64,000 nucleotides of DNA from a virus (lineage: Duplodnaviria > Caudoviricetes): the IMG/VR virus record IMGVR_UViG_3300027838_000002, positions 1 through 64,000 of that record, one strand, 5' to 3'. Made by a program: the position numbers and the translations under genes. Positions within the stretch are counted from its first letter, which is position 1, and the number at the start of each line of letters is the position of its first letter. This document shows, one piece after another, positions 8,207-63,420 of the stretch. The notes below the pieces were generated by a model. It was not told the origin of the DNA. It did not search any database and saw only the letters and a list, made by a program, of their open reading frames with translations.

Positions 8207-8910
8207 GAGTGTCTCCCGTTTCGCTTGGGGTCGATCACGTCATATGGACGTGGGTGATCACCGAAGATGGCGTCTGCAAACGATACCGCCTCGGGGTTAG
8301 GGGGGCGTATGACAAGCCTGGGCGCTGACGGCTTCTTATCAGCACCACCTATATCTGAATCCGTGACCTTGATGAACTGCTTGTTTCCGTCGAGGCCGAA
8401 CAGGGCCACGCGCAACGTGGGCCATGCATCCATGGCCGTGTGCTGCTCAACTGAAATCCAGTCAACAATTTTTACCGGCTTGTAGTACGCCTTGTGGAAC
8501 TTCTGGTTGGCCAGGTCCAGGATGCCGGACTCGATGAGCATGCGCGAAATACCCAGCCAATGATCAGTTGGCACCGCCAGTAACGAATGATCCCAGTGCT
8601 GGGAATCCTTCTTACCGTTGGATACGCCCCTGAACACGGGCTTGGGCGTCACGAGTAACTGCACCTCGCACTTGTTCTCAACACAGTACTCCTGGGCCGG
8701 ATCAACCCGCATTTCTCCGTAGGTGAAAAGCGCCCCGTGATTGAAGAAAACGTATTCGTTGGCCAGATCATTCAAGGTAGCTGTGGCGGGCAGCGACAGT
8801 GCCTTGAACGGCCTACTATCTCCATCAACGGAGTCGGCGTCCTGCCGACCTTCCCTGTAGGGAACACGGGGTTTGTCATCGTCCATGACGTCTCCAAAAA
8901 AATACCGCAC
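8203..8910 (-). CDS. hypothetical protein directly downstream of TIGR-like array 1
   Basis: 235-aa ORF; the true start may be ATG 8886. Confidence 0.65.
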   Translation of the reverse strand: MRYFFGDVMDDDKPRVPYREGRQDADSVDGDSRPFKALSLPATATLNDLANEYVFFNHGALFTYGEMRVDPAQEYCVENKCEVQLLVTPKPVFRGVSNGKKDSQHWDHSLLAVPTDHWLGISRMLIESGILDLANQKFHKAYYKPVKIVDWISVEQHTAMDAWPTLRVALFGLDGNKQFIKVTDSDIGGADKKPSAPRLVIRPPNPEAVSFADAIFGDHPRPYDVIDPKRNGRHS

Positions 8911-9240
8911 GCCGTAGGTTTGTTACTAGCGATTAATATGGTTGCACGCTCAACAAGTGGAACTCGCTCAGACGCTGGTTGCACGCCAATGACATGATAC
9001 TCTCCGTGACTCTGGTTACACACGATACTCGTGGTACTCGCGCGTTGGATGGTTGCACGCCATCGGCTTGTTACTATCGCGAATGATGGTTGCACGCAAT
9101 GATCCTGGTACTCGCAACGACGCAGGTTGCACGCTCCTGTGTTGGTACTCTCCGCTGCCCTGGTTACACGCTTACCTCTTGGTACTCGCAGTCATGATGG
9201 TTGCACGCTCCGCTTTTGGTACGCTCGCGACCCGTGGTTA
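8907..9240 (-). ncRNA. TIGR-like dual-repeat guide array 1 (9 x 37-nt units)
   Basis: + strand alternation TGGTTGCACGC-N8-TGGTACTCGC-N8, exact 37-nt period, variable spacers. Confidence 0.9.
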
Positions 9241-9247
9241 TTGATTC

Positions 9248-9925
9248 CTACGCAGTCACCAGTGACCTCACGAGGCCAGAGGCTTCAGCAACGTGCTTCG
9301 CCCTGAGAGCGTCGTAGTGGGCGGCCGGTACGCCCCTATCGTGATCAACGTAATCGGTTGCGTCGAAGCTGAACTTGAAAAACGTGTCAGCACGAATGGG
9401 ATCGAAACCAGGCACCCCGCTACCCAGCACCTCGTAAGGATCAACGCAAAATGCGCTGCGACCATACCACAACCTGGGCGGAATGTCGTTCGGGCGAAGG
9501 GCGCCGACCGCCAACGCCTCCATGGCAGCCATCTTGAGCGCATCCTTAACGACTTTCCCGACCAGCTGCGCTGGCTCATCGTTGTACAGCAGTTGCGGCC
9601 AAGTAAGCTCGAAGGGGCCGGTGTGATCCGGAAACTTGAACATGTTGATCAGGAAATCCGTAAACATGGTTCCTGTATCCATATCCTGCTCACCGTCGTT
9701 GTGCTGCAACAATACGTCACCAGCTGGCGATAGCATGCAGATCGAGGATAGCTTTCCGTAGAACGGCGAGAAGCGAGCATCAGCTTCCTGCTTCTCCTTC
9801 TTCGCAGCCACTGCGGCGGCAATCTTAGCGGGGTCCTTGTAATTGGAAGGAGCCTCGGGCTCCGGCAGCAGGTCTGTGCGATACGCATCGCTCGTCCAAC
9901 CAATATAAAAGCTGTTCATCATCAC
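9248..9925 (-). CDS. PolB-type 3'-5' exonuclease-like protein, probably inactive
   Basis: PEAPSNYKDPAKI..FSPFYGKLSSIC resembles phage RNaseH-like exonucleases, but no DxE at ExoI (IGWTSD). Confidence 0.45.
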   Translation of the reverse strand: MMMNSFYIGWTSDAYRTDLLPEPEAPSNYKDPAKIAAAVAAKKEKQEADARFSPFYGKLSSICMLSPAGDVLLQHNDGEQDMDTGTMFTDFLINMFKFPDHTGPFELTWPQLLYNDEPAQLVGKVVKDALKMAAMEALAVGALRPNDIPPRLWYGRSAFCVDPYEVLGSGVPGFDPIRADTFFKFSFDATDYVDHDRGVPAAHYDALRAKHVAEASGLVRSLVTA

Positions 9926-10110
9926 TCCTTGTTCAACTCTTCTGCGATCTCGCGATCGACCTCTAAAGAACCATCCACGTAACTTGCTTCGTGTGGTAAC
10001 GGAAAATCGTCTGCTTCGACTTTGGTCACAGCCTCGTCCAGGTTATCCGCCTCAACCTCGACGATTCCGTACACTTCCCAGGAACAGGGAATTTCGTAGC
10101 TCCTACTCAT
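9922..10110 (-). CDS. hypothetical protein
   Basis: MSRSYEIPCSWEVYGIVEVEADNLDEAV, common small phage protein pattern. Confidence 0.65.
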   Translation of the reverse strand: MSRSYEIPCSWEVYGIVEVEADNLDEAVTKVEADDFPLPHEASYVDGSLEVDREIAEELNKE

Positions 10111-10256
10111 CACTTCTTGTCGCGACACTCGCGCTTCCACGAAGTCTTGTCACAGTAGCTCCAGCCTTTGTTGAGAAAGCGCTTGATAACCACATCATCG
10201 TCCTGGGTCTTGTTCTTGACCCGCTTGAAATCACTTCCCTTGCGCAATGTCTTCAT
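10110..10256 (-). CDS. small basic hypothetical protein (48 aa)
   Basis: MKTLRKGSDFKRVKNKTQDDDVVIKRFLNKGWSYCDKTSWKRECRDKK; TGATG coupling; below ORF track cutoff. Confidence 0.6.
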   Translation of the reverse strand: MKTLRKGSDFKRVKNKTQDDDVVIKRFLNKGWSYCDKTSWKRECRDKK

Positions 10257-10394
10257 CGGTGTCTTCCTTCTTCTCTGTTGGTGCTTCACGGAACCGGTCC
10301 AAGTGGTCTTCGTAGTCTTCCCACATGATCTGTCGGTCCAACGCGCTCTCTTCCGAATAATTATTCGGGTTTGGTGGAATGAACATTCTCGTCC

Positions 10395-10541
10395 TCACTC
10401 ATCTTCAATCTCCGCTTCAAGTTCACTAACAATATAAGCCAATTTACAACTGACACTGTTAGGAATGGGTGCTTCAACAATCATTACATTTAAATCGCTA
10501 ATAACATCACCAACGGTTTTATATTCGCCAACGCTACTCAT
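10395..10541 (-). CDS. hypothetical protein
   Basis: MSSVGEY start overlapping upstream stop. Confidence 0.45.
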   Translation of the reverse strand: MSSVGEYKTVGDVISDLNVMIVEAPIPNSVSCKLAYIVSELEAEIEDE

Positions 10542-10884
10542 CTTCAATGCCTGCTTCGTCACCAGTAGCAGCGTGCGCTTCAACAAAAGCCACGGCACGC
10601 CCACTGAGCGCCTCAACCAGTTCTTCGGTCGTGTATCCCTTTGTAGCCTGGTCACGCATGGACTCAACAACGATTCGACGGATGGTCTCCTGCTCTTCTA
10701 CGTCCTCAGCGAACTCCTGCACGCACGGAAGCAGAGCCGCATGCGCCATGAAGTACAACCTCCATGAATCCAGCATGACCACCATGATCTGCTGGACCTC
10801 TTCACTGGAAGTTGCCAGCACGCGGGCCTTTTCTGCAGCCGCGCCCAGGGCATCATCTTCCGATGGTTGCGCGTCGTCGCTCAT
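10534..10884 (-). CDS. hypothetical protein
   Basis: AGGAG SD, acidic 116 aa. Confidence 0.65.
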   Translation of the reverse strand: MSDDAQPSEDDALGAAAEKARVLATSSEEVQQIMVVMLDSWRLYFMAHAALLPCVQEFAEDVEEQETIRRIVVESMRDQATKGYTTEELVEALSGRAVAFVEAHAATGDEAGIEDE

Positions 10885-10983
10885 CAGTCATCTCCCTTTA
10901 ACCAGCCGAAGTAGTCGGCCAGCAGTGAAAAAATACCCAGCGCTACAATTGCCGCTACCAAATATGATCCGCTGGGCCCCAGT

Positions 10984-16350: not shown

Positions 16351-16462
16351 AAACACAGTCATCTTGTTACAAGCTACAACCTTGGTTACGCACCTGTGGC
16401 GTGTTACTGACCAGAAGTAAGGCTAGACGCAACATCTTTGGTACCCGCCAATCAACTGGTTA
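16351..16462 (-). ncRNA. degenerate TIGR-like array (3 units)
   Basis: 37-nt period kept (tgttacaagc/tggttacgcac/tgttactgac/aggctagacgc/tggtacccgc/tggtta); starts at stop of 16460 ORF. Confidence 0.65.
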
Positions 16463-17383
16463 CTGATTTCGACGGGCTCGTCGTAGTGCGCGCCGCGCTA
16501 CGCTTGTTGCCTCCTGCATCTCATCAGTTGTCTCTGTTGTCTCTGTTGAATTATCTTCCTCATCATCTGCCTGCGGGTCAAGAGCCGCGTTAACTGTTTC
16601 TCGAATACGGTTGCCTCGACTGGCGTTTGCCGTAGCCAAAGCAGCCAGTCTTTCCATTGTGATAATTACCTGATCCAGCTTTTCAGCAATTTGATCACCG
16701 TATTCCTCTGTGGGCATGGCCTCCAGCGATGCCAGGACGGAGTCATCTTCCCCGGCCCACACCGACGCGTTCTGCCTCTCCCACTTCTCGCAAACGGTTG
16801 TCATCTGATCTAGCCCGGCTGCGATAGTACGCGGCTGCTGGTAAGCGCGGCCGGGAGAGTTTGCCGGTCGCTGGTTAGCTGTATTCATATCTTTGACCAG
16901 CTTACCCAGCTCACGAGTTGAAAGGTTTTCCTGGCCAACTCGCTGCTGTAACTCCTCGCGTACGGTCTTATCGTGTATCGCTAGGAGAGTGGTGGTGTGC
17001 GTCCATGAAATGCCGATTTCTCGTAGCGCGTCGAACTCTGACTGTGTGTACTGCTGAGCGAAATCCAGGCACTTGTAGATAAGGCTCTCACCAATTGACC
17101 AAGCAGCCACCAATTTATCGATAGGCGCAGGTCCGTACGTTTCTTCGTTAGACGTCTCAATACTCGACAACTTGTTGCCAAGCGCGTAGTAGAAATCAAG
17201 GGTTTCCTTGAACTGCACCTCGGCGGTATCCAACATCTCGTCGTACTGCTGACGCAAATCTTCGTTCATCGAACGGATAGCGTCAATCTTCGCGTGATAC
17301 AGCTCCTGGGCCTCCGCACTGAGCTGCTCGACTGCCTCGGTCGTCTTCTCGTACTTAGCCAGTGGGTTCTCGTTCTTTGCCAT
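16460..17383 (-). CDS. DUF1016-N/ParB-HTH-like protein
   Basis: ISWTHTTTLL...ENLSTREL resembles LSWSHY...WSVREL. Confidence 0.55.
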   Translation of the reverse strand: MAKNENPLAKYEKTTEAVEQLSAEAQELYHAKIDAIRSMNEDLRQQYDEMLDTAEVQFKETLDFYYALGNKLSSIETSNEETYGPAPIDKLVAAWSIGESLIYKCLDFAQQYTQSEFDALREIGISWTHTTTLLAIHDKTVREELQQRVGQENLSTRELGKLVKDMNTANQRPANSPGRAYQQPRTIAAGLDQMTTVCEKWERQNASVWAGEDDSVLASLEAMPTEEYGDQIAEKLDQVIITMERLAALATANASRGNRIRETVNAALDPQADDEEDNSTETTETTDEMQEATSVARRALRRARRNQ

Positions 17384-31198: not shown

Positions 31199-31720
31199 TT
31201 ACGTCGACTCGACTGGTGACTTACGCACAGTCGTTGGATCTATTGACCGCCTACGCGGCCGAACCTCTTCCACGCGAAACGTACCGTAGCCCTCGTCCGG
31301 CTTGAACGACGAGATACCCTTGTACGTCCCCGCGACATCCATCAGCTGCCACAAGTCATCCATACTCAACCCATCAGGGAGCACGCAGTTCACCCCGATG
31401 GTGTCGCCAGATAAAAACGCCTCATGGAGGGCGTATCTGGGACGCGCCTCCGGCTTATTTTCCGGCGCCGGGAAATACCGACGCCATTTTTTAGGGACAC
31501 CGTCGACGACGGGATCCCATCGAATCCTCTTCACAGCAGACTGGTGACGGCTCAAAACCTTGGCCGCGTATCGTATGATACCCGCCCACCAGGTTGGCAG
31601 AAACAGCACTCTGCCCTCGGGGTCGCGCCGCATTGCGAGAATGTGGTTCTTCCCATCAGCCCGTTTGACATCACCCGGGCAAGGCTGGTTGAACTGAATT
31701 CTCACCGTCACTTCTTGCAT
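31199..31720 (-). CDS. stand-alone Cas7/Csm3-like RAMP-fold protein
   Basis: VTVRIQFNQPCPG; RDPEGRVLFLPTWWAGIIR; HEAFLSGDTI; G-rich loop GISSFKPDEGYGTF. Confidence 0.6.
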   Translation of the reverse strand: MQEVTVRIQFNQPCPGDVKRADGKNHILAMRRDPEGRVLFLPTWWAGIIRYAAKVLSRHQSAVKRIRWDPVVDGVPKKWRRYFPAPENKPEARPRYALHEAFLSGDTIGVNCVLPDGLSMDDLWQLMDVAGTYKGISSFKPDEGYGTFRVEEVRPRRRSIDPTTVRKSPVEST

Positions 31721-40787: not shown

Positions 40788-40824
40788 AAAAAGAAGAGAC
40801 GGCCGGGTGTTACCCCGGCCGTCT
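40788..40824 (-). terminator. intrinsic terminator (copy 1)
   Basis: AGACGGCCGGGGTAACACCCGGCCGTCT-CTTCTTTTT. Confidence 0.8.
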
Positions 40825-40826
40825 TT

Positions 40827-40863
40827 CACGCTTCAATCGTGGTACTCGCAGACCATGTGGTTA
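40827..40863 (-). ncRNA. single TIGR-like unit
   Basis: TAACCA-CATGGTCT-GCGAGTACCA-CGATTGAA-GCGTG. Confidence 0.75.
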
Positions 40864-41160
40864 CTCTTCAATCTCCTCCTTGACCGACAAGTGAATCGTC
40901 GATCCGCCGGTCGCGTCAATGTGAAAGCCAGTCTCCTTCAGATTGGCTGAGAGTTGACACCCGACGTGGTACGCGACATCGGCTTTCAGGTTGATGCCGT
41001 CGCGGGGGTCTCCCTTGCCGCTTGCTGCGGCGAAGATAGCGCCACAGGCTTCCTCGTCGCTCACGTCCTCGGGTACGTTGAACTCCAGCACCAGCCCGAA
41101 GTCGATCTTCAGTTTCCTAGTCTTCGTTGGAAATACGATGCGGCCATGCTGCTCACTCAT
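40861..41160 (-). CDS. hypothetical protein
   Basis: MSEQHG start with GAGGAG SD. Confidence 0.6.
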   Translation of the reverse strand: MSEQHGRIVFPTKTRKLKIDFGLVLEFNVPEDVSDEEACGAIFAAASGKGDPRDGINLKADVAYHVGCQLSANLKETGFHIDATGGSTIHLSVKEEIEE

Positions 41161-41371
41161 CTTCAATCTCCTCTTCGTCGCCAAACATCTTGTCAAAACA
41201 AGACCCGCACGTCCCACTGATGAGAACTTCGCGATCATCCGCCGACAGGTACGGCATGGCATCATGAATCAGTGCGCCATTATGCCAGTTCGCAAGATCC
41301 TCAGCCACCACCGTGATACGCTGTGTTTCTTTGCACTGGACGCAATCAATCTCCATGAGCGTCTTCGGCAT
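41153..41371 (-). CDS. small zinc-binding protein
   Basis: CVQC...IHDAMPYLSADDREVLISGTCGSCFD. Confidence 0.7.
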   Translation of the reverse strand: MPKTLMEIDCVQCKETQRITVVAEDLANWHNGALIHDAMPYLSADDREVLISGTCGSCFDKMFGDEEEIEDE

Positions 41372-41384: not shown

Positions 41385-41421
41385 AAAAAGAAAAGACGGC
41401 CGGGTGTTACCCCGGCCGTCT
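41385..41421 (-). terminator. intrinsic terminator (copy 2)
   Basis: same hairpin as 40788 followed by T-tract. Confidence 0.8.
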
Positions 41422-41458
41422 CACGCTCGCGGCATGGTACTCACGTATACCGTGGTTA
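41422..41458 (-). ncRNA. single TIGR-like unit fused to the tasA stop codon
   Basis: TAACCA-CGGTATAC-GTGAGTACCA-TGCCGCGA-GCGTG. Confidence 0.8.
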
Positions 41459-42742
41459 CTCTTCAGAAGCTTCGTCCTCGGAGTCTTCGTCATCCACTTC
41501 CGGTGCCGGTGCCGGTGCCGGACGCGGAGCGTACAAGTCGCTAAGCGGCTTGCCACCCAGGTCGTCCGCAAGCGGGAAGTGCGGAATAGGGATGGTATGC
41601 GTGTGCGTACCATCGCCGTGCTCGATAATAAACGGCTTCGGAGGATCTTCCCCGTTGAGATCCACGTACATCACGTGATGTAGATGCGACATGAAGATCT
41701 TCACCGCATAACGGCGAGCACGCGCATGAATATGCGCCGGGGCAAGCATTACAACGCCGCTACCAGGTGCGCCCTCGTTCGTGTTGAGGTACGGCAACCG
41801 CTTGGCCTGGTCCAGTGCCAGCACCTTAAGCATGGTGTCTGCGGTGTAACAGCCTTTCATCCACTTGGTAGCATAGGCGTCATCACTACGCTTCTGCTTC
41901 GTCAGGATGCTTACTGCCTGGTCCGAAAACGCACCAGCCATATTACGCTCGACCTCCAGGGCCTTCCGAGCCTGGAACAAATGGCCGTAATCGCAGTCTT
42001 CGTGATTTTGAAACTTCACGAAGCACTCGCCCATCTTGAACGCACAAAGCGACTTAAGCTCAGCGTTCCACGGACGCGCAGCCAGGTACTTCTCCATAGC
42101 AGCATACTTCTTGTACTTGGCAAAGCCATCAGACCAAACCTGCTGCAGCCGGACAGGATTAACGTTACACAGCGACGACAACTCCGTAGCCAGCGGTAGC
42201 GAAAGGGTGCGCGCGGTCTTTTGCAGGTCGACCTGTTGCAACATGCTCTTCGCTTCCTCTTTGCCGTGCCAAGTGCGGGACGGATCCAAGCCAGCGAAGC
42301 GCCACCACTTGCCCACGGTGGGAGTATTCCTGATATCCAGGTGCGCCAACAACCCAGCAGTAATCACCGGACCGATACCGTGATTTGACAAACACCATCG
42401 TCCAGCTGCGTACGAGGCAGCAAACTCACCCAGCGCACGCTTGATGTCCTCTTCTGCACGCTTAATATTCGCCAGTCCCCAACAGATGACCTCGTTAGGC
42501 TCAGCGTGCTTCTCAGTCTGCCGCTGCTGGCCCCGAAAACGGATACGCACGTTCTGCATCTGGTAGTACATGTCTACCAGGAACCGCGCCTCCTCGGATC
42601 CAAGTTCCGTAGCGGCTTTCCGCAAATCGCTGTCAAGCCTTTCAAGCAGCTCCCACTGAGACGCATCCACGGTTTGGGCTTCAGTATTCTCGCTAGCATT
42701 ATCATCGTGTTCTGGCACATCAGGAAAATAAATTGAGCTCAT
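41456..42742 (-). CDS. TasA-like Nop-domain RNA-guided DNA-binding protein (IS110-related, no RuvC/HNH)
   Basis: LVDMYYQMQNVRI coiled coil; HGIGPVITAGLLAHLD; KWWRFAGLDP; RPWNAELKSLC; HIHARARRYAVKIFMSHL; guide unit at its stop. Confidence 0.85.
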   Translation of the reverse strand: MSSIYFPDVPEHDDNASENTEAQTVDASQWELLERLDSDLRKAATELGSEEARFLVDMYYQMQNVRIRFRGQQRQTEKHAEPNEVICWGLANIKRAEEDIKRALGEFAASYAAGRWCLSNHGIGPVITAGLLAHLDIRNTPTVGKWWRFAGLDPSRTWHGKEEAKSMLQQVDLQKTARTLSLPLATELSSLCNVNPVRLQQVWSDGFAKYKKYAAMEKYLAARPWNAELKSLCAFKMGECFVKFQNHEDCDYGHLFQARKALEVERNMAGAFSDQAVSILTKQKRSDDAYATKWMKGCYTADTMLKVLALDQAKRLPYLNTNEGAPGSGVVMLAPAHIHARARRYAVKIFMSHLHHVMYVDLNGEDPPKPFIIEHGDGTHTHTIPIPHFPLADDLGGKPLSDLYAPRPAPAPAPEVDDEDSEDEASEE

Positions 42743-43023
42743 TTTGTGTTCTCTGTTTCGTCATGTTCTTGTTTTGGTAGGTACTCATTATCGAGGCAAC
42801 GCTTAAGCGCTACCTCTAATCGTCGGTTCTTACGCAACAACCACTTAACATCGAGAAACATAGTGCGCGAATCCAACTCAAAAACGGTTGGCGCTGCATA
42901 CCTCTCGCGTAATTTACTGACGAGAACATCATCAGAAATGTCGTCGTCTGGATAGCTAGGATCAATCACAGCTCTGTCTCCAACATTGCCATGCGCACAA
43001 TCGGCACACCGTAATCCAGCCAA
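42739..43023 (-). CDS. hypothetical protein
   Basis: ATGA-coupled to tasA; start uncertain. Confidence 0.45.
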   Translation of the reverse strand: MAGLRCADCAHGNVGDRAVIDPSYPDDDISDDVLVSKLRERYAAPTVFELDSRTMFLDVKWLLRKNRRLEVALKRCLDNEYLPKQEHDETENTK

Positions 43024-43466
43024 AACGCATCGTCCGAGTTACCCCGGTGACCGCTACGGTTGTCCAGGTACACCAATCGCTTGATACCGCTTTGCATAAT
43101 CAGTAGCGCGCAATCCTTGCACGGAATACCACTGATGTACATCGTGCCGCCCCGCCGGGCGTCCACCGACGAAAACATCAATGCATTCTGCTCACTGTGA
43201 ATACAACAGTTCGGCTTATCGGTCGAATTGGGTGATAACCCCTCGCGGTAGCACACACCATCATTGCACGCGCCGCGGGGTTTCCCGTTGAAAGCCGTAG
43301 TAACAACCAGCCCTTCCTCCGATACGATTACCGTCCCATACTGTGCGCGCACACACTTGGACATCTCCGCTACTTCAAGAGCCAGGCGCATATAGCCCCT
43401 GTCCTTCTCGGTAGCAATGGGTGCGCGCATCCTATCCCATGCCGGTACGGTCATACCTTCGCTCAT
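42966..43466 (-). CDS. dCMP deaminase
   Basis: SKCVRAQYG, FNGKPRG, IHSEQNAL, PCKDC, SGIKRLVY. Confidence 0.9.
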   Translation of the reverse strand: MSEGMTVPAWDRMRAPIATEKDRGYMRLALEVAEMSKCVRAQYGTVIVSEEGLVVTTAFNGKPRGACNDGVCYREGLSPNSTDKPNCCIHSEQNALMFSSVDARRGGTMYISGIPCKDCALLIMQSGIKRLVYLDNRSGHRGNSDDAFWLDYGVPIVRMAMLETEL

Positions 43467-43715: not shown

Positions 43716-44015
43716 TTAGTTCCACTCAGGCGTCCCTTCGTCGGTCTTAAGCGCTGTGACAAGTTCTGATGGAAACGCTACAGGTTTCAAATCAGAATCC
43801 TGTACGGTCCAGCCCAGCGTCTGAAAGAGAATCTTGGTCTTTTCCCGAAACTCCGCAAAAGGCGACGGGATGCGCTCGATGAGCGTCTTATTCTCGTGAT
43901 CAATCTCGTATACACAGACTCCTTGCGGAGCTGCCCAAGTAGCACCCTGCTTGGTGGTACGAATTAACTGCTGCCCGAATTGGATATCCTCTTCATCGGG
44001 TGTCCAGTCTGGCAT
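43716..44015 (-). CDS. hypothetical protein
   Basis: operon-spaced ORF. Confidence 0.6.
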   Translation of the reverse strand: MPDWTPDEEDIQFGQQLIRTTKQGATWAAPQGVCVYEIDHENKTLIERIPSPFAEFREKTKILFQTLGWTVQDSDLKPVAFPSELVTALKTDEGTPEWN

Positions 44016-44620
44016 TCTTCTTCCTCACGATACCTGTCAATAGCTCGGTAAATGGTCGCACGGCCTACACCGTAACGACGCGCCATCTCGGCTACACAAA
44101 CACGGCCAGGGCCTGGTTCAAAACGACCCTGATTATAGAACCTCCCTACGATGCCAAGCTGACTGTCCGTCAACTTCCCCTTACCCTTAGGAAACCTCTT
44201 CCGACCCCTCGCGTACTTACGCAAATGCGTAACAGCTTCTGACTTTGTGGCGTAGGCGAGATTGGACGGGTGAAAATTGTTCGGGTTGCCGTCCAACCGT
44301 ATTACCTGAAACTTGTCTGCAGGCCGCGGCCCTAAAAAGGCCTCCGACACGATACAGTGGATGCGTCGCGAGTGGCCGCCATTGCGCGCCTCAACAGCGT
44401 GATACAACGTTACCGAGGGATCGCCGGAGCTGGGGAATGGCCAGTGCTTCAGGATACGCGGCTCACCTGCGATGGTACCGCCGCGCCATGTCACCCAGGA
44501 ACGCACCCGCCCCTCTGAAGAGACGTCATATCTCCCGCCGTAACCAGGGACCTCTCGCCATTCCTCTACCCGCAGTCCGACCTCGGAGCTGCCAACGGGT
44601 TGGTGGGTTCGGTCATCCAT
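43964..44620 (-). CDS. NUMOD4/HNH homing-endonuclease-like protein with C-terminal HTH
   Basis: EEWREVPGYGGRYDVSSEGRVRS; IHCIVSEAFLG; RLDGNPNNFHPSNL (first His replaced); MARRYGVGRATI. Confidence 0.85.
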   Translation of the reverse strand: MDDRTHQPVGSSEVGLRVEEWREVPGYGGRYDVSSEGRVRSWVTWRGGTIAGEPRILKHWPFPSSGDPSVTLYHAVEARNGGHSRRIHCIVSEAFLGPRPADKFQVIRLDGNPNNFHPSNLAYATKSEAVTHLRKYARGRKRFPKGKGKLTDSQLGIVGRFYNQGRFEPGPGRVCVAEMARRYGVGRATIYRAIDRYREEEECQTGHPMKRISNSGSS

Positions 44621-44999: not shown

Positions 45000-45370
45000 A
45001 CACTCCCGCCTTTTGGTACTCTCCGTTCGCTTGGTTGCACGCTCCTGTGTTGGTACTCTCCGCCGCCCTGGTTACACGCTCGACAAGTGGAACTCGCTCA
45101 AGCCATGGTTGCACGCAATGAGGTTGGTACTCGCGGTGATGATGGTTGCACGCATACCTTCTGGTACTCGCAGTCATGCTGGTTGCACGCCAAAACTTTG
45201 GTACTCGCAGCTGGATTGGTTGCACGCGTGGTCTTTGGTACTCGCGAACGACTTGGTTGCACTCCCGTGCTATGGTACGCGCTCTTGAGTTGGTTGCACG
45301 CGGTTCAAATGGTACGCACGCCATCGCTGGTTGCACGCTCATAGTGTGGTACTCGCAGCCGTCACGGTTA
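45000..45370 (-). ncRNA. TIGR-like dual-repeat guide array 2 (10 x 37-nt units)
   Basis: same two repeats and 8-nt variable segments; starts at TAA of upstream gene. Confidence 0.9.
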
Positions 45371-45862
45371 GAAAACCCTGAAACCTCCGCAGTGCCGTAG
45401 AAACTCGATCCACTCCTTCAGGGATTCGTCATCAACGGAGTGCGGTGATCGCACCCCGTCAACGCCCTGCGCCCCGAAACGCGCCTGCGCCGACGCGACC
45501 AGCGCTGCCTCGGCCAGGAAACCGGTCTCATCCGACGACTTGGGGCGGAGGTCAACAAATTTCCCCTCTCCATCAACGCGCATCCCGTGATCGACTTCGT
45601 GCCCATCGATGTTGTGCTCCATCCACTGGGAGAACCGCATGGCTATCTCGTCGCAGGTTTGCTGATCTTCGGGGCCAGCTCCGTCGTTGAAGCTCATCTG
45701 TAGCAGCATCTCTTCGTCGAGAAAGTCGCTGCACAGCTGCCGCATCAGGTCGTGAATAGGTCGCCAGGACCAGACGTTGGCCCTGAAATAACACCCAGGT
45801 TGATCTTGACCAGCAGCCGCCCACTCGTTGGCGAACCGTCTCCCGTACACATCCATGCCCAT
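45368..45862 (-). CDS. conserved phage hypothetical protein
   Basis: MGMDVYG..YFRANVWSWRPI..EFLRHCGGFRVF; GGAGG SD. Confidence 0.75.
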   Translation of the reverse strand: MGMDVYGRRFANEWAAAGQDQPGCYFRANVWSWRPIHDLMRQLCSDFLDEEMLLQMSFNDGAGPEDQQTCDEIAMRFSQWMEHNIDGHEVDHGMRVDGEGKFVDLRPKSSDETGFLAEAALVASAQARFGAQGVDGVRSPHSVDDESLKEWIEFLRHCGGFRVF

Positions 45863-46080
45863 TGATATGTTCCTCCGTCTCGTTTGTTGTTGAATAGCCT
45901 GCCACCCACCAACTGGTGGGTTGAGCGCATAAAAATTCCACCCTAACGGAAACTCGCGTGCCAAAAAACGGGTGGTCATTTGCATGGACTGCCTGGACGC
46001 GCTCTCCAAGTGGTTCTGATCTCTGGACTTAAGACATGGCCATGCCTGGACATACCCTGGACGTCCCATGCACCTCCGGT

Positions 46081-46215
46081 ATAGGGGTTTCTTTGAGCTA
46101 TAGTGACTGGGAGAGACGAGCCAGAGACGAGCCAGAGACGAGCTCGGGGGAGGTGCGCGGGAGGTGCACGGGAGTTAACGACCATAGGGGTTTCTTTGAT
46201 CTATAGTGACTGGGA
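46081..46215. repeat. 32-bp direct repeat enclosing 11-bp tandem repeats
   Basis: ATAGGGGTTTCTTTGA(G/T)CTATAGTGACTGGGA at 46081 and 46184; AGAGACGAGC(C) x3; GGGAGGTGC x2. Confidence 0.8.
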
Positions 46216-49849: not shown

Positions 49850-50845
49850 TTACGCTTTTTTACGGCTGTGAAAACTGCAAGTCTCATCCAGGATACGTTG
49901 TACGGCTTCGGCCCTACTGTATCCGGAACTTGCTTCCTTGCTGTTGGAAGCTTTGATATGCAATCCTTCCGCCGTCAACTTTTTCGCAGTAACAGCCTCG
50001 ACGATACGATCACGTCTGATAAGTCTCCGCGCGGCCATATACCCTTCCAGCCAGCCTGCCGGACGCCGTTCGTTGTACCGCGTGAACTTGATAAAGCGAT
50101 GCAGTCCGCCAATCACGTCTTCACGTACCGCATCATCTTCACCCTCCCACATGTCATGGATCATTGAAAGTACGGTAATGATGAGCTCAGAGCCGCCGTC
50201 CTTGTACAGCCGCTCCAGCCGACTCAGTGCGCGGACATACGGCCACTTACCAGTAACACCGGGCTCCAGCGGGATATCAAACCCGGCAGCACACACGGCA
50301 CTGTAAATGTCGACCGCAAACTGATTATCAGCCTTCAGGGCTGAGCGAAAGATTTCAATCTTGGTAAGACGTGTCTTACGTGCGTTCAACTGGTGGAACA
50401 GGTTTGCCTCGAACTTTGCGCCGGTAGACGCAACGATTTCGACGTTTACCTTTGTCACGCCCAGTCGTAAGGCGGCCTCGATGCGCTGCTGCCCATCGAT
50501 AATGTAAAGCCCTCCACTTTGTCGCTTACCTACGACAGGCGTGCTGAAGGCGTCCCAGTTGAAGTAGTCGATGATCTGAGCAACCTGGCGCTCAACGAGC
50601 TTACGCTGGTAGGAGTAATCAACCTGCAAATCAGTGACGGTAATGCACTGGTACCGGCCCTTGTGACTGGGTTGTGCACTGACGCTGTTGATGTTTTCTA
50701 CTTTCAGCTTAGTTGCTGCCCGTTTGTCCAGGCGATGCTCAGCCGGACTGAGCATCGCGTCATCCGTGCGCCGTAGCGCCCGCACGGCTTTCTTCTCTGG
50801 CTGTACCTGCACCCGCTGACGAAGTTTCTGTTTGCGCCGACTCAT
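49850..50845 (-). CDS. ParB/DGQHR-like (DUF6551-like) protein
   Basis: LQVDYSYQR..IIDGQQRIEAA..EANLFHQLN. Confidence 0.8.
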   Translation of the reverse strand: MSRRKQKLRQRVQVQPEKKAVRALRRTDDAMLSPAEHRLDKRAATKLKVENINSVSAQPSHKGRYQCITVTDLQVDYSYQRKLVERQVAQIIDYFNWDAFSTPVVGKRQSGGLYIIDGQQRIEAALRLGVTKVNVEIVASTGAKFEANLFHQLNARKTRLTKIEIFRSALKADNQFAVDIYSAVCAAGFDIPLEPGVTGKWPYVRALSRLERLYKDGGSELIITVLSMIHDMWEGEDDAVREDVIGGLHRFIKFTRYNERRPAGWLEGYMAARRLIRRDRIVEAVTAKKLTAEGLHIKASNSKEASSGYSRAEAVQRILDETCSFHSRKKA

Positions 50846-55495: not shown

Positions 55496-55718
55496 ACACG
55501 CGCGGTAGTTGGTACTCGCGAGGAGTTTGGTTACACACCAATATCATGGTACTCACTCAGAACTTGGTTGCACGCAGCTAGCATGGTACTCGCCTCTGCC
55601 GTGGTTGCACGTGCTTCTTTTGGCACTCTCCCCGCACCTGGTTGCACATTCCCCTATTGGTACTCTTCTCGAACCTGGTTGCACGCACGCAGATTGGTAC
55701 TCGCTCGTGGTTTGGTTA
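55496..55718 (-). ncRNA. TIGR-like array 3 (6 units)
   Basis: 37-nt period; abuts terL stop convergently. Confidence 0.9.
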
Positions 55719-55814
55719 CTGCTTCCTGCGCCCGTACCTACAGATGATCAGCGTCGTTATCACGACACAGGCACAGATGAGCAGGGTCTTCAGGACTTCA
55801 GGTGAAACACACAT
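55716..55814 (-). CDS. 32-aa single-pass membrane peptide inside the array
   Basis: MCVSPEVLKTLLICACVVITTLIICRYGRRKQ; its TAA is part of edge repeat TAACCA. Confidence 0.5.
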   Translation of the reverse strand: MCVSPEVLKTLLICACVVITTLIICRYGRRKQ

Positions 55815-55955
55815 CTACTATGGTACTCGCAAGTTTTGTGGTTGCACGCATCGATCGTGGTACTCGCGTCGATGGTGGTTGCACGCGCTTCTTTTGGTAC
55901 TCGCGCGACGCCTGGTTGCACGCGATACGCATGGTACTCGCTCGATCAATGGTTA
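55807..55955 (-). ncRNA. TIGR-like array 4 (4 units)
   Basis: 37-nt period; starts at TAA of 55953 ORF. Confidence 0.9.
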
Positions 55956-56570
55956 TTGACACCATTCGGAATCCCAGATCATCTCCACATTCTCACCGTG
56001 CAGGATTCCAGTGGGTGAGATGTACGGGCGCCCCAGCCCGATCAGGTCTTCGTACGAGACCTTGAGCCGCTTCTCGGGGTCGCTGGCTACCACTAGTTCC
56101 GAGCAATACAGCGCTTTCACGCCCAGCTCGAACTTGTTGTCGTAGTCCAGGCCCTCAAACGTCAGGCAGGTTTCGACGACCTTCTTGACATACTCGCCAT
56201 CCCAGTCCGTACAGCGCAGGATGACAACCCTGTCTGCCTCGTGGCAGATGTCGTAGAACTCGGACTTCTTGTAGCCGACGCGTGTCATTTCGGCAACTTC
56301 GAAGCCGCGCTCTGGTGACTTGCTGAGGCACAGCGCAGCGTGAGGCAGTTCCCCCGGGATGATGAAGCTGGTGAGCTTCCAGTTGTCCTTGGTCAGGAGA
56401 ATGTCACCTACGCGCAGCAGCTCAAAGCCTTCCCGGTACGTGAAGCCGCGGATGGCGCTGTAGTACGTGTTGAAACGCACGTACGGGATCTTGTCGAGGA
56501 TCCAGTTGTAGAGCCATGTTTCCATGGCCCAGAAGGCAAATCGTGACCAGAGGCTACGTAAGAGTTGCAT
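55953..56570 (-). CDS. permuted papain-like NlpC/P60 (YiiX/YebB-like) hydrolase
   Basis: LRVGDILL..IPGELPHAAL..GLDYD..LYCSELV (His before Cys). Confidence 0.85.
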   Translation of the reverse strand: MQLLRSLWSRFAFWAMETWLYNWILDKIPYVRFNTYYSAIRGFTYREGFELLRVGDILLTKDNWKLTSFIIPGELPHAALCLSKSPERGFEVAEMTRVGYKKSEFYDICHEADRVVILRCTDWDGEYVKKVVETCLTFEGLDYDNKFELGVKALYCSELVVASDPEKRLKVSYEDLIGLGRPYISPTGILHGENVEMIWDSEWCQ

Positions 56571-56574
56571 AGAT

Positions 56575-56834
56575 TCACGCTGCTATTGTGGTACTCGCTG
56601 ATATCATGGTTGCACGCATTTCTATTGGTGCTCGCCCAGGCACTGGTTGCACGCTTGTTTTTTGGTACTCGCGCGGGTCCAGGTTGCGCGCCGTCTTCAT
56701 GGTACTCGCTGCTGGATTGGTTGCACGCTGTGATCGTGGTACACGCGGGTCTGTTGGTTGCACTCTGGGACCGTGGTACTCGCGCCGAGTTTGGTTGCAC
56801 GCAGATATGTTGGTACTCACCAATACTATGGTTA
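56575..56834 (-). ncRNA. TIGR-like array 5 (7 units)
   Basis: 37-nt period; starts at TAA of 56832 ORF. Confidence 0.9.
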
Positions 56835-59741
56835 GAACTCGTCGTCAGGAGGTACTTCGTTGTACCACCCTTCGGCTTCCGCTACGTCAAAATCACTCTG
56901 GGCGTTGTCGTCAGTTTCTTCCGTGGCCTCGTCGTCTGACTCATCGTCTTCCACGACGTCAAAGTTGTCCTCGCGTAGTCTGTCGTCGGGCATTGGGGCT
57001 CCTCCGTAATTTTTTGCTTTATGACGAGAATCGCGATCGCTGAGAATCTCGGTCCACCAGAGCTTGTCCACCCACCAGTGCTCGGCGTCGTCCCGAATAA
57101 GCACCCCTGCGCTGTGCATCTCCTGCGATAGCCGCACCATGTCTAATAACGGTATCTCGGGTACGGTGACAAGACTATTTATGCGTTTCTTGCTCACCCT
57201 GACGTGCTCACCTGATACCGCTATGGCTGGCGCGTGACTCTGTTCGAATTCTTCGTTGATCGTTGTCAGCTTACCTGACACCAATCCGTGGTACACCAGC
57301 TCTGCGAAGTAGTCTAGCGGGTCCGGCGCAGAGTCTAACAACGCCGCCGCTTGACGAAATACCGTGTCGTCATTGGTCAGGTCCCCGAACCATGCTGACA
57401 TATCCGCGAGCACCGACTCCACGTACGAGCCTGTGTACGTTAAACGAAAGCGGCGGGCCGCCAGGTGCTGTATGTACGCGGGTAAAATTGGCGCGCCCAC
57501 ACGTTGCAGCGTTCCGCCGACTGAAGGTGCACCATCTACATGGATCAGGTTCCAGCCACCGTTGATCATCAACGCCTGTGCGTGCTGCGGCAACAGATCA
57601 ACTATGGCGTTCTTTGCGTCAGGGTGCTGTAGCCAGTCTGCTAGCAGCTTGTTCTTGTACTTGTCACAGCGCAGGTATACCGGCCACTGGTGCCGTACAA
57701 TGGCTGCCGAATTTTTGGCAACAACTCTCTTGAAAGCCCCAAGCGCACTGACATCAGTGGTGATGCAGCCCAGGCTGGTGGCAGTAGCAGCCCCCAGCGA
57801 GGTAGCTGCAGCTCCTAGAAGTACCAACCCCCTGCGATCTTGATGGAGTACCTCTGCAAGCAGATTACTGGTGATGTGTGCTGCGGTCGCCCAGAATACT
57901 GCGGATGATTGACTGGACGCGCCCAGTGTTTTCAGCGTCTCGTGTGGAATATTCCCGGGGGCCTGTAGATCACGTGCCGGTGTCATTTCAGTCAGGGTAT
58001 ACCAGGCGTCTTGCTCTAAGACGTGTCCGCCAGGGTGTACCTCGAACCGTGGAAACACGAAGCGGTCGTCTACCCACCCAAACGACTCGATCCCTTTGTT
58101 CGATGTTGGTTCGTGGAAACCTTGTGCCAGTCCCAACAGGTGTTGCGACCAACGTGGCTGTATGTTGGGACGACCCATGCCGTGGCGGGCGAGCAGGTTG
58201 CGCAGCCAGGCGCCTGTTTTATTCTCCATAACGCTAGCCAGCTCAGCGAATTCAATAACCTGCTCGTCACGAGTGACGTTTCCGCGATACTCCGTTACGT
58301 TTTCGTCAGGGTAGTAAACTACGTTCTCCAGTCGAATGATCGTGTCGGATAAAATCTCGCCGGAAGCTAGCGTCCAGTGTCCGTCCTTTTCGAGAACGGT
58401 CTTACCGTTTATGGCTATGCTGCGGTGCTTTTCCTTACCCGCGGTCTTTATCTTCTGCAGCTTGTTACATATCGCTTCGCTGCACTGCTGCATAAACCGC
58501 GCCAACTCTACGTCTGACATGTTTAGGTACAGCAGCAGATTCTCACATTCAGCGAGCTCCATCTTTTCCAGCTCGGTTTCCAGCACGTCTTCCCAGGCCC
58601 GCGACTGCCGCACCATCCGCTCCAGCCACTCAACTGGACGACGCCTACTCACGTCGTCAGGAAGGGCACGCAGAGAGTCACTCACAGCAATGCGTCCCTT
58701 GGCGCACATAGCCTGTTGTATCAGCTCCGGACTTAATTCCGGTGCCCAAATGATGTAGTCGCGGTGGGCTGCATTCTTCCACACGTGCCTGTTCGAGATA
58801 CGCCCGTCTATGATTGACCCACATATCGGGAGAGGGGTGTTATTGTCCCGGAGGTGCCGCAGCTGTAGTTTCAACGCTGTGACCGGGTCGTTCAGTACGA
58901 AAGTTGTTGATCCAAACTTCTTGTGTTCGATCGTCAAGGTCTCGTACATAGAGAGCCCTGAATCCCATATCGGGGCCTGATCCTTGGTTTCGAACTGGTG
59001 CGAAACCACTGGAACACGTTTGAATACAAAGTCGTCCGGAGCCTCGGCATCCCTTCCGATAAACATGAACGCGTGGATCTTGCCGGGGGCCGTGTAGAAC
59101 GGGATGACAAGCACGTCGGCCCAATCCTTACCCTTGAATACACGGCCACGCCCAGCGTTGAGCGAGTCGCCTTTTTTGAGACGGTTTGTGCACATCGTGT
59201 GGTGCAGCGCCATGCGTACGTCGTTAGCGTGGCAGCCACCCAGGAACCTCCCGGCACGCTCAAACCAGGTGGACGTCGGAGTTGCCGCTCGTCCAACTAG
59301 TTTCTGGCACAGTTCTACCATCTGTTCGGTGTCCTGCAGCGGAAGGCGTTTTTGCGCGGACTCCCACATATCTTGCAGGCGCTGACGGTGCCGTATGTGC
59401 GCTTCCTCGTATTTTTCCACAGCGATGGGATCCAACACCTTCGAGATTACCGCGATCCCCTGATCACGCAATTTTCGAAAAACGTTGACGGGGTCTAACC
59501 CCCAGGCTTTTCCGGCCAATTCCACCGTATCGCCCGTAAACTGGCACGCGGAGCAGTAGTGCCATTCGCCACCTGATATACTATCCTTGTAGACACGAAG
59601 GCCCTGCTGTCGGCATAATGGGCAGCAACACACAGTTGGTAATACCTTTACCGGTATTTCCACGCCCAGTAAGGGCAGAACCTGGTCCCAGCTAATATGG
59701 TAGTTGAGACTGCAGACTCTCGTGCTTTTGGAGAATGACAT
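56832..59741 (-). CDS. large protein with primase-type Zn finger and DUF927-like segment
   Basis: CCCPLC..WHYCSACQFTGDTVEL; GIESFGWVDDRFVFP; no intact TOPRIM or Walker motifs seen. Confidence 0.55.
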   Translation of the reverse strand: MSFSKSTRVCSLNYHISWDQVLPLLGVEIPVKVLPTVCCCPLCRQQGLRVYKDSISGGEWHYCSACQFTGDTVELAGKAWGLDPVNVFRKLRDQGIAVISKVLDPIAVEKYEEAHIRHRQRLQDMWESAQKRLPLQDTEQMVELCQKLVGRAATPTSTWFERAGRFLGGCHANDVRMALHHTMCTNRLKKGDSLNAGRGRVFKGKDWADVLVIPFYTAPGKIHAFMFIGRDAEAPDDFVFKRVPVVSHQFETKDQAPIWDSGLSMYETLTIEHKKFGSTTFVLNDPVTALKLQLRHLRDNNTPLPICGSIIDGRISNRHVWKNAAHRDYIIWAPELSPELIQQAMCAKGRIAVSDSLRALPDDVSRRRPVEWLERMVRQSRAWEDVLETELEKMELAECENLLLYLNMSDVELARFMQQCSEAICNKLQKIKTAGKEKHRSIAINGKTVLEKDGHWTLASGEILSDTIIRLENVVYYPDENVTEYRGNVTRDEQVIEFAELASVMENKTGAWLRNLLARHGMGRPNIQPRWSQHLLGLAQGFHEPTSNKGIESFGWVDDRFVFPRFEVHPGGHVLEQDAWYTLTEMTPARDLQAPGNIPHETLKTLGASSQSSAVFWATAAHITSNLLAEVLHQDRRGLVLLGAAATSLGAATATSLGCITTDVSALGAFKRVVAKNSAAIVRHQWPVYLRCDKYKNKLLADWLQHPDAKNAIVDLLPQHAQALMINGGWNLIHVDGAPSVGGTLQRVGAPILPAYIQHLAARRFRLTYTGSYVESVLADMSAWFGDLTNDDTVFRQAAALLDSAPDPLDYFAELVYHGLVSGKLTTINEEFEQSHAPAIAVSGEHVRVSKKRINSLVTVPEIPLLDMVRLSQEMHSAGVLIRDDAEHWWVDKLWWTEILSDRDSRHKAKNYGGAPMPDDRLREDNFDVVEDDESDDEATEETDDNAQSDFDVAEAEGWYNEVPPDDEF

Positions 59742-62612: not shown

Positions 62613-62781
62613 CGTCCCGCTCCTCGATATCGAACTGCGCGCGTAATGCGTCCACTTGTTTGTGCGCTAATGCCGACGGCCGCCCATCAATCCATGACGA
62701 CAGATTAACAGCCAACGCAAGTGCACGGTCTCGCTGCTCAAGATAACTCTCTGCAGACAACTTACTCATATGTTGCCTCAT
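62563..62781 (-). CDS. hypothetical protein
   Basis: ORF after promoter. Confidence 0.5.
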   Translation of the reverse strand: MRQHMSKLSAESYLEQRDRALALAVNLSSWIDGRPSALAHKQVDALRAQFDIEERDDDGGSPSEDEVPPADS

Positions 62782-62806
62782 CTTTGACTGTCAAGAACGT
62801 CTGCAA

Positions 62807-62835
62807 TTTATACTGACTGGCCCCACGCGCAGCAA
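62807..62835 (-). promoter_or_regulatory. sigma70-type promoter
   Basis: TTGCTG-17 nt-TATAAA. Confidence 0.45.
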
Positions 62836-62843
62836 TAGCCCTG

Positions 62844-63047
62844 CTACTCAGTATCGATGCGGGAAAGCTCAACCAATTCGTCCGCCGCGTTTATGCGTGC
62901 CTGCACTTCACCCCTGTGGATAATCACGCTCTTGGGCGCTTCGACACCAAGACGGACGGCACCTTTATGGATCTCAAGAACGGTAATCACAACACGACCG
63001 CCGTCGATGACGATCGTTTCTTCCGGTTTCCGTGACATTACTAGCAT
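62844..63047 (-). CDS. csrA: CsrA/RsmA translational regulator (second copy)
   Basis: MLVMSRKPEETIVI..VRLGVEAPKSVIIHRGEV. Confidence 0.95.
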   Translation of the reverse strand: MLVMSRKPEETIVIDGGRVVITVLEIHKGAVRLGVEAPKSVIIHRGEVQARINAADELVELSRIDTE

Positions 63048-63056
63048 TTACGCTCC

Positions 63057-63329
63057 TCAGCCCTCCACTCGTTTTAAGATGTCCCACAGTTTGCATATCG
63101 CTGCACCCCCTGATCCGGAGTGCGCGAGCGCATCCCATTCGACTGGCGCTTCGTCTCTTGCCTTTCGCAGCAAGTTTAAGCAATCGCTTGCGAGCAAGGC
63201 ATCCATCGGTATATTCTTCTGCAATCCCAATGCATCAGCGACACGCGCTATCTCGCTGATGAGCTTGGGTACCGCTCCTCCGTAAAATTGCTGGCCCATG
63301 GCCGTCTGAAAAAACTCTGGTCCCGCCAT
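63057..63329 (-). CDS. hypothetical protein
   Basis: FFQTAMGQQFY..VPKLI; AGGAG SD. Confidence 0.65.
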   Translation of the reverse strand: MAGPEFFQTAMGQQFYGGAVPKLISEIARVADALGLQKNIPMDALLASDCLNLLRKARDEAPVEWDALAHSGSGGAAICKLWDILKRVEG

Positions 63330-63341
63330 CTGGTTCTCCTA

Positions 63342-63377
63342 AACAAATACCCCGACCTCCACGAAGGGAGGCCGGGG
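63342..63377 (-). terminator. intrinsic terminator
   Basis: CCCCGGCCTCCC-TTCG-TGGAGGTCGGGG-TATTTGTTT. Confidence 0.6.
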
Positions 63378-63420
63378 CGGCTACACGCAAGCCTGATGGT
63401 ACTCGTCGGGACTATGATTA
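63378..63420 (-). ncRNA. single TIGR-like unit
   Basis: TAATCA-TAGTCCCG-ACGAGTACCA-TCAGGCTT-GCGTGTAGCCG, followed by terminator. Confidence 0.7.

Follow-up and report, generated by a model that had tools for sequence, protein, structure and literature searches.

A tas gene and nine dual-spacer arrays on one strand of a phage genome

The 64,000-nt stretch analysed here (the window) comprises positions 1 to 64,000 of the 82,979-nt IMG/VR record IMGVR_UViG_3300027838_000002, from a virus of the Caudoviricetes. It carries a gene, tasA, for a Nop-domain protein (P0001) and nine arrays (A1 to A9) of short dual-spacer units of the type found in TIGR-Tas systems (Table 1). A first-pass annotation made from the sequence had reported about 42 such 37-nt units, distributed over nine minus-strand loci. 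When the whole record was listed in register, the counts and positions were the same, with 42 units at nine loci on the minus strand and zero units on the plus strand. Each unit is exactly 37 nt long and consists of an 11-nt edge repeat (GCGTGCAACCA), an 8-nt spacer A, a 10-nt loop repeat (GCGAGTACCA) and an 8-nt spacer B. The edge motif, at up to two mismatches, has 54 matches compared to 25.9 ± 4.1 in shuffled sequence (100 shuffles, none reaching 54), and the loop motif has 103 compared to 56.5 ± 7.8 in shuffles; this excess and the listing together confirmed the earlier census. The last 19 kb of the record, beyond the window, hold no convincing unit, a five-mismatch match at 80593 being doubtful.

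Table 1. Positions in the window of tasA, the nine arrays and the hairpins that follow three of them.
Feature	Coordinates	Strand	Units	Description
A1	8908..9245	-	9	First base 9245; 7 nt past TAG stop of ORF 9248-9925
A2	16352..16467	-	3	Degenerate repeats; on TAA of 307-aa ORF 16460-17383
A3 hairpin	40797..40824	-		Terminator-like; 11 pairs, 3' of A3
A3	40827..40868	-	1	On TAA of 134-aa ORF 40861-41265
A4 hairpin	41393..41422	-		Intrinsic-terminator-like; 12 pairs, 9 GC, T-rich tail, directly 3' of A4
A4	41422..41463	-	1	Half-edge TAACCA holds tasA stop; ends in truncated edge GCGTG
tasA	41456..42742	-		428-aa coiled-coil and Nop-domain protein (P0001), no nuclease domain, acidic C-terminal tail
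A5	45001..45375	-	10	On TAA of 233-aa ORF 45368-46069
A6	55497..55723	-	6	On TAA of 32-codon ORF; 3' end faces end of plus-strand terminase gene
A7	55808..55960	-	4	On TAA of C92 amidase gene 55953-56570
A8	56576..56839	-	7	On TAA of 969-aa ORF 56832-59741
A9 hairpin	63349..63378	-		Terminator-like; 12 pairs, 9 GC
A9	63384..63425	-	1	Diverged unit, TAATCA ... ACGAGTACCA ... GCGTG; on TAA of upstream ORF

Within the arrays, edge copies are found on the minus strand only and are spaced exactly 37 nt apart, and Tandem Repeats Finder reported period-37 arrays at five places. In a column profile that included 4 of 42 rows out of register (from A2 and A9), the two variable 8-nt blocks carry 0.01–0.23 bit and the repeats are conserved at 0.55–1.63 bit. 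The repeats of A1, A5, A6, A7 and A8 are near consensus and their spacers are at chance identity. Published dual-repeat TIGR arrays contain alternating 10-11-nt repeats that end in CCA (box C) and two short spacers (PMC12045711). The anatomy of the present arrays is of this type, as the first-pass annotation had proposed, with alternating CCA-ending repeats, two short spacers and truncated edges. Edge and loop repeats both end in ACCA and both start with GCG(U/A)G. Box D of TaTasR is UG (PMC12045711); the common 5' start of edge and loop here, GCG.G, is a box D-type match at the level of the motif and not of its letters.

All nine arrays have a (T)AACCA-type half edge at the 5' end and a GNGTG/GCGTG-type half edge at the 3' end. 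TIGR arrays are described as opening with a 5'-truncated first edge and closing with a 3'-truncated last edge that is followed by a terminator (PMC12045711). The truncated edges are thus seen at 9/9 loci here, and a terminator-like hairpin at only 3/9, namely after the solo units A3, A4 and A9, each of which is followed by a hairpin of 11–12 pairs with a T-rich tail. With the exception of A1, the arrays (8/9) open on the TAA stop codon of the upstream open reading frame (ORF), which lies inside the half edge TAACCA, TAACCG or TAATCA. The ORFs that stop within the first half edge range from 32 to 969 codons and include tasA, so that one unit is indeed fused to the stop codon of the Nop gene, as had been noted earlier. 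At the other end of A8, the amidase gene starts with its ATG 5 nt past the truncated edge GCGTG.

On the minus strand at 40790-40890 and 41385-41485, a near-identical cassette made up of the final two codons GAA GAG, the stop TAA, one guide unit, hairpin and a GGAGGAGAG ribosome-binding site (RBS) stands behind two different genes. The units in question, A3 and A4, are identical at 11/11 positions of the half-edge, 9/10 of the loop and 5/5 of the 3' edge, and agree at only 2/8 positions in each of the two spacers. The two copies have identical hairpins and nearly identical RBS stretches; two substitutions and short gaps occur close by. Such likeness in everything except the spacers is expected if it is the spacers that vary under selection.

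The nine loci are spread over 54.5 kb and are co-oriented with tasA and with flanking genes. A4 adjoins tasA, and A3 lies 0.6 kb, A5 2.3 kb and A6 to A8 12.8–14.1 kb from it; the distances increase to 20.6 kb for A9, 25 kb for A2 and about 32–33 kb for A1. Hence only A3 and A4, with 2/42 units, are less than 1 kb from tasA; the other 40 units are at distances of 2.3–33 kb. The claim that the guide repertoire is spread through the genome was upheld. The same positions recur in metagenome contigs of independent origin and in a DNA run that is not flagged as a source of the record (see below).

P0001 is predicted to be a Tas protein without a nuclease domain

When P0001 was searched as a single sequence against PDB, 9mty (TIGR-TasR) was matched at E 1.2e-8. 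A family profile built from 41 homologues matched TaTasR 9mty at E 6.2e-22, TasH at 3.1e-7 and IS621 at 9.5e-5. The Pfam family Transposase_20 stayed below threshold (16.2 bits, cut-off 21.3), and the PHROG match is named 'transposase'. The AlphaFold2 (AF2) model, computed from a 41-row alignment, has a pLDDT of 86.3 and a pTM of 0.82; about 44 N-terminal residues are of low confidence, with pLDDT 44–51 for residues 1-30. With this model as the Foldseek query, PDB ranks 1-10 were all TasR or TasH chains. The profile and Foldseek searches that had been suggested as a check of 41456..42742 thus both returned Tas proteins.

Alignment of the model with Tas structures by VIA-align gave Z scores of 18.1–19.4 over P0001 residues 45–391, including 19.4 for TasH residues 65–309 and 18.5 for TasR residues 111–322 (root-mean-square deviation 2.4, 194 aligned residues, 24% identity). 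IS621 and ISCro4 reached a Z of 14 only. The aligned part of P0001 begins at TasH residue 64–66 and TasR residue 111, i.e. behind their nuclease domains, which bears out the earlier description of a Nop/IS110-like protein lacking RuvC. By its predicted structure, P0001 is a Tas protein without RuvC or HNH, that is, a TasA, since TasA has been defined in the literature as a coiled-coil and Nop scaffold that has no nuclease. Assignment to the IS110-family recombinases was rejected, since no domain precedes the coiled coil, Transposase_20 is below its cut-off and the Z score for IS621 is 14 compared to 19 for Tas. CRISPR-Cas was rejected as well, as the arrays have two different 10-11-nt repeats with 8-nt spacers and no Rfam family was found at the gathering score; no cas gene was seen among the 47 different ORFs in general domain scans, padloc not being applied.

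A homodimer model of P0001 with an interface in a helical hairpin (residues 36–103) scored an ipSAE of 0.59, the best control scoring 0.00. In the calibration of this score, the mark was reached by 20/30 solved homodimers and 1/23 single chains. Three runs share at least 82% of the contacts, and the partner pLDDT is at least 81. The predicted dimer may reflect memory of the model, since solved Tas dimers exist. SpTasH has a processing dyad, Y289/H296, on its C-terminal loop (PMC13421893). A C-terminal loop is present and flexible in the P0001 model (pLDDT <50 at 374–380); P370 is invariant, and H380 and H382 are found in 38/41 and 34/41 sequences, respectively.

The Tas family is large: of 8,000 candidates that were scored, 995 proteins reached E ≤ 0.001. 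Close relatives have TasA proteins that are 77–92% identical to P0001 (P0002-P0010), and one close relative is named 'uncultured Mediterranean phage'. P0001 alone as the query found no relative among viral contigs. An identical protein is encoded on a separate 119.6-kb contig, and the 82,979-nt record is therefore possibly incomplete.

Arrays keep their positions and exchange their spacers

The exact array pattern was used as a query and recovered four short metagenome contigs (L001-L004), with 0 matches in viral contigs. Synteny places these contigs at the A7, A8, A1 and A5 positions; their flanks are 69–95% identical, and each has an array at the corresponding place. In L003 and L004, whose flanks are 69–78% identical, the repeats are well-formed and the spacers are different. 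Among the 26 register-listed units of the four contigs, three are within 2/16 mismatches of a unit in the window, and all three reside in a different array than they do in the window. An additional L001 unit, at 1158, is identical to the fourth unit of A7 (A7.4; other units are numbered in the same way). Unit A2.2 has a counterpart in L002 that differs at one position in 16 and whose repeats deviate in a similar way.

The phage was detected in 18 DNA runs from marine or seawater samples (15 studies); five of these runs (one per study) are possibly the source. One DNA run that is not flagged as source covers A6 to A8 without a single difference. Variants were seen in other seawater samples: in a DNA run, a variant of A8 skips 185 nt, i.e. 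five units, and in one DNA run A5 has a net length 37 nt shorter, one unit. In addition, one sample contig joins A5 to A7. Taken together, the independent runs and the variants show genuine arrays whose positions are stable and whose content is fluid.

Spacers are also shared between units of the window. At up to one mismatch, three A-A and three B-B pairs of half-spacers agree, compared to means of 0.35 and 0.45 with a maximum of 3 in 500 shuffles. Several units of A1 are diverged copies of A5 units, and A1.3/A5.9 is the only guide kept in two arrays. Spacer A of A7.4 and spacer B of A5.5 are reverse complements of each other, one exact case in 1,764 comparisons for which about 0.03 would be expected.

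A scattered layout is the exception among sampled relatives

For comparison we used 80 IMG/VR loci whose Tas proteins are 33–42% identical to P0001. After blocks of period 30-33 or 38-44 had been removed, a block of period 34-37 was present in 72/80 loci as raw calls of a periodicity detector. The nearest block lies within 2 kb of tas in 69/72 array-bearing loci and only distant blocks are found in the other 3; at 6/72 loci some block is more than 3 kb from tas. Whole-record pattern scans found 23 units within 0.8 kb of tas in G001 (111 kb, 93% complete), 25 units within 1.2 kb in G002 (120.7 kb, complete) and 9 units adjoining tas in G003 (47 kb, complete). A 30.5-kb fragment (G004, L019) encoding a TasA that is 37% identical has 56 units in about five blocks at 3244-7687, 8.5–13 kb from tas. 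These blocks are separated by gaps of 0.4–0.8 kb, a second lineage with remote, interrupted arrays. In all four relatives scanned over the whole record, units and tas have the same orientation. Scattered arrays are thus exceptional among the sampled relatives, yet the present phage is not the sole case. A period-36 signal outside the window, at 12440-12700 of L085 (record position 76.4–76.7 kb), was rejected as a TIGR array, being a Gly-X-Y collagen-like coding repeat (GGGCCGATA x 6 and variants).

The first-pass annotation had called the system a phage-encoded member with a 37-nt unit. The membership is real, and the emphasis on the unit was overstated: SpTIGR has 16 variable nt per unit as well (PMC12045711), and the relatives show periods of 34-37. 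Published TIGR arrays lie upstream of, downstream of or inside tas (PMC12045711; 10.64898/2026.09.09.750476). The published array search covered 5 kb on either side of tas (PMC12045711), and a preprint survey examined regions 'surrounding tas loci' (10.64898/2026.09.09.750476). Genome-wide scattering is described neither in the papers returned by a full-text literature search nor in the text of the 2025 paper, whose supplementary tables may list the clade or distant arrays.

Metatranscriptome matches

The phage was also found, at a small share, in two metatranscriptome libraries. Contigs of these RNA libraries match the record at 100% identity in two places: one runs from the amidase stop codon into A7 (55910-56188), and another connects the last A8 units with the amidase gene (56319-56682). 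The RNA-library contigs cover 9 and 12 of 30 bins, and the uncovered parts are uninformative. The contigs fit co-transcription of the arrays with neighbouring genes.

Matches of one guide to viral polymerase genes

The 16-mer of guide A1.3/A5.9 was searched against viral contigs in different arrangements of its two spacers. As spacer A followed by the reverse complement of spacer B, A+rc(B), it has 30 matches; the largest cluster of matches in the same context has 11 members (L087-L114) and falls on a family-A DNA polymerase site, YATQDAAL. As rc(B)+A it has 57 matches, of which 30 (L116-L170) are at another family-A DNA polymerase site, YYAAHTGRW. The control arrangement A+B gave 38 matches with largest clusters of 4. 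No other guide matched those polymerase loci above control arrangements, and the phage's own polymerase differs at the guide-matched motif. With one control and no second supporting guide, we regard this match as a lead and not as a finding. The two 24-nt tiles implied by the A7.4/A5.5 pair had 0 matches in genome contigs and 0 in viral contigs. Clues to the host were also sought in the 82,979 nt; the record has no tRNA genes, no Rfam family at the gathering score and no close cultured phage.

Genes around tasA and the arrays

The minus strand encodes a replication and nucleotide-metabolism module with a family-A DNA polymerase, primase, DnaB-like and other helicases, SbcCD, a UvsX-like recombinase, dCMP deaminase, RNase H and a ParB-like protein. 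The large terminase is encoded on the plus strand just before A6, and the C92 amidase gene sits between A8 and A7. Two genes upstream of tasA, 42966-43466 (-) encodes a dCMP/cytidine deaminase (PF00383, E 2.7e-16). An HNH gene, 43964-44620 (-), is located between tasA and A5. We considered it as the nuclease of a split TasH and rejected it, as its NUMOD4, HNH_3 and HTH domains are of the homing-endonuclease type. In one sample's contig, part of this gene region (44094-44441) is substituted by a diverged replacement of equal length.

According to Faure et al. (2025, PMC12045711), tasParB genes occur in operons with tasA. The window has a ParB-like gene at 49850-50845 (-) (PHROG 1033, E 3e-15; DUF6551), 7 kb from tasA, and 16460-17383 (-), the ORF whose stop lies in the first A2 half edge, has sub-threshold ParB-HTH and DUF1016_N matches. 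Unlike the genes of the published operons, neither of the two adjoins tasA. A second Nop-like gene proposed at 31778-32719 was rejected (hhalign probability 0.3% against the Tas profile, no Pfam match), and a Pfam scan was empty for a RAMP-like candidate at 31199-31720 (-). Other repeats in the record are a 12-nt tandem repeat at its start (8-85; TCAACGGGTTCG x 6.5, perfect-looking) and two 11-nt tandem repeats at 46112-46174, upstream of ORF 45368-46069.

Interpretation and alternatives

We consider it highly probable that this uncultured marine phage encodes a genuine TIGR-TasA system of the dual-repeat type and has its guide genes at scattered places in the genome. In the mechanism that we propose by analogy, the arrays would lack recognisable promoters of their own and be transcribed as the 3' tails of at least eight genes, including replication-module genes, tasA, the amidase gene and the gene for the 969-aa protein. 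A TasA dimer would bind each unit via the CCA-ending repeats, and the precursor would be cut within the edge repeat to give 37-nt tigRNAs; the truncated array ends suggest a cut between GCGUG and CAACCA. Each ribonucleoprotein would bind 16 bp of DNA, spacer A addressing one strand and spacer B the opposite one. MbTasA, a nuclease-free Tas protein whose binding to DNA is controlled by a guide, acts as a repressor, and the phage TasA may likewise act by occupancy, through a block of transcription or replication (10.64898/2026.09.09.750476). The targets most likely lie in the host or in competing phages, and not in the phage's own genome.

Several observations weigh against this reading. In the phage's own genome, 0 matches at up to one mismatch were found for four half-site arrangements, and the counts at two mismatches, 6 and 3 for the real geometries, are close to the 2 and 4 of the controls. 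Near-matches with their mismatches in one codon phase were not clearly above the shuffled null; for A+rc(B) at two mismatches there were 2 compared to 0.3 in the null, only one of them at wobble positions. The RNA-library matches are assembled contigs that lack ends and strand and may originate from DNA in the library, and they give no sign of processing to tigRNAs. The six multi-unit arrays run into the next gene, and no terminator-like site was detected downstream of them. Position 371 of the protein, if it is the equivalent of the SpTasH processing tyrosine, is Phe in P0001 and close relatives (Tyr in 21, Phe in 18 and Trp in 2 of 41 sequences). Finally, the repeats of A2 and A9 are degenerate and both arrays may be inactive.

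The last point leads to a reading in which only part of the repertoire works, and the distant arrays (A1, A2, A9 and perhaps others) are decaying copies that were spread by recombination between repeats and have no function of their own. Besides the degenerate repeats, the diverged units common to A1 and A5 are in line with it, as is the contig that joins A5 to A7, which suggests recombination, or mis-assembly, of arrays via their repeats. We think this quite unlikely, because the array positions are kept in L003 and L004 at low flank identity together with good repeats and different spacers, because even the degenerate unit A2.2 recurs in L002, and because A1, like A5, A6, A7 and A8, combines near-consensus repeats with unrelated spacers. 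Alternatively, the units could be cis RNA elements: cutting by TasA at the stop-codon half-edge would control the stability or translation of the upstream mRNA, and DNA targeting would be secondary or absent. The overlap of 8/9 arrays with the stop codon of a preceding gene (in one case tasA), the location of three solo units between a stop codon and a terminator, and target searches that gave no DNA target could all be explained in this way. However, cis elements need the repeats only, and spacers that are hypervariable between cassettes and between related phages fit guides; moreover, an array of ten units would be superfluous as a cis signal, and the TasA proteins assayed to date, as reported in the preprint, bind DNA under the control of a guide (10.64898/2026.09.09.750476). 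We therefore judge a mainly cis-acting role to be very improbable.

Hardly credible is the proposal that the repeats are iteron- or centromere-like sites for a ParB-like DNA-binding protein and unrelated to the Nop-domain protein. The gene at 49850-50845 and the sub-threshold ParB-HTH and DUF1016_N matches in the ORF before A2 would provide candidates for such a protein. Against this, the grammar of the unit is specifically that of TIGR, strict co-orientation with transcription and starts on stop codons are needless for a DNA site, and the relatives of P0001 have period 34-37 blocks at 72/80 loci, 69 of them within 2 kb of tas.

The preferred reading, a TIGR-TasA system with scattered guide genes, allows an extension that we regard as rather unlikely and that would connect guide biogenesis to the phage's mRNAs. 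If the cut falls between GCGUG and (C/U)AACCA, the UAA stop would be lost from the upstream message, that of tasA included. Processing of the first unit would then remove the upstream UAA in eight genes and leave non-stop mRNAs, and the arrays would do two jobs. Were this true, separate guide sets would be released from different transcription units (the replication module, the lysis region and tasA), and the arrays would feed back on the genes they trail, a form of RNA-guided operon punctuation. Shuffling of units between arrays, to which the shared half-spacers and the presence of relatives' guides in different arrays point, would also diversify the repertoire without an adaptation machinery.

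TIGR-Tas systems were described in 2025, and their natural targets, role in phages and the origin of their arrays are questions that the published work raises (PMC12045711; 10.64898/2026.09.09.750476). Since the published surveys looked near tas only, guides that lie tens of kilobases away would have been missed or counted as orphan. The present phage provides a well-covered natural case in which guides are tied to the stop codons of ordinary genes and in which relatives differ in the spacers at fixed positions. It makes testable whether guide sets are expressed by gene class, whether processing affects the upstream mRNA, and how spacers turn over.

Comparison with known systems

P0001 has the Nop-like RNA-binding domain in common with the IS110/IS621 bridge-RNA recombinases (8wt6, 9t56). 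Unlike them, the P0001 locus has no DEDD/RuvC-like catalytic domain, bridge RNA or transposon ends. Among the Tas proteins, TaTasR (9mty) is the best sequence match; it has a RuvC domain (residues 1–110), for which P0001 has no counterpart, and its guides have 9+9-nt spacers. The best structural match is SpTIGR-TasH of Salicola phage CGphi29 (PDB 9w03, 21kl, 9vzx), which is likewise phage-encoded and uses 8+8-nt spacers. SpTasH has an N-terminal HNH nuclease, cuts DNA and has an adjacent array (PMC12045711; PMC13421893), whereas P0001 has no counterpart of its residues 1–63, and the equivalent of SpTasH Y289 may be a Phe. Compared to the solved Tas cores, P0001 has about 100 additional residues.

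With regard to function, MbTasA, a nuclease-free Tas protein, and catalytically dead TasR are RNA-guided repressors (Xu et al. 2026, 10.64898/2026.09.09.750476) and may, by analogy, serve as the model for the phage protein; MbTasA is from a Minisyncoccota (candidate phyla radiation, CPR) bacterium and is introduced in that preprint under stem-loop-binding systems. The dual-repeat systems of FpTasA (Flavonifractor plautii) resemble the present one in having a solo coiled-coil and Nop protein without a nuclease, in being phage-borne, and in their CCA-ending edge and loop repeats and truncated edges (PMC12045711). They differ in their 36-nt unit, compared to 37 nt with an 11-nt edge here (PMC12045711), and in layout, as the present arrays mostly occupy other intergenic gaps far from tasA and 8/9 overlap the stop codon of the upstream gene. 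The fold, the absence of HNH and RuvC, the alternating repeats, the box motifs, the truncated ends and the predicted dimer are those of a dual-repeat TIGR-TasA system, and what departs from it is the position of the arrays, which as a set are not next to tas. This is a feature of the layout and not of the mechanism; the layout is new and the system is known, and the phage does not carry a new kind of system.

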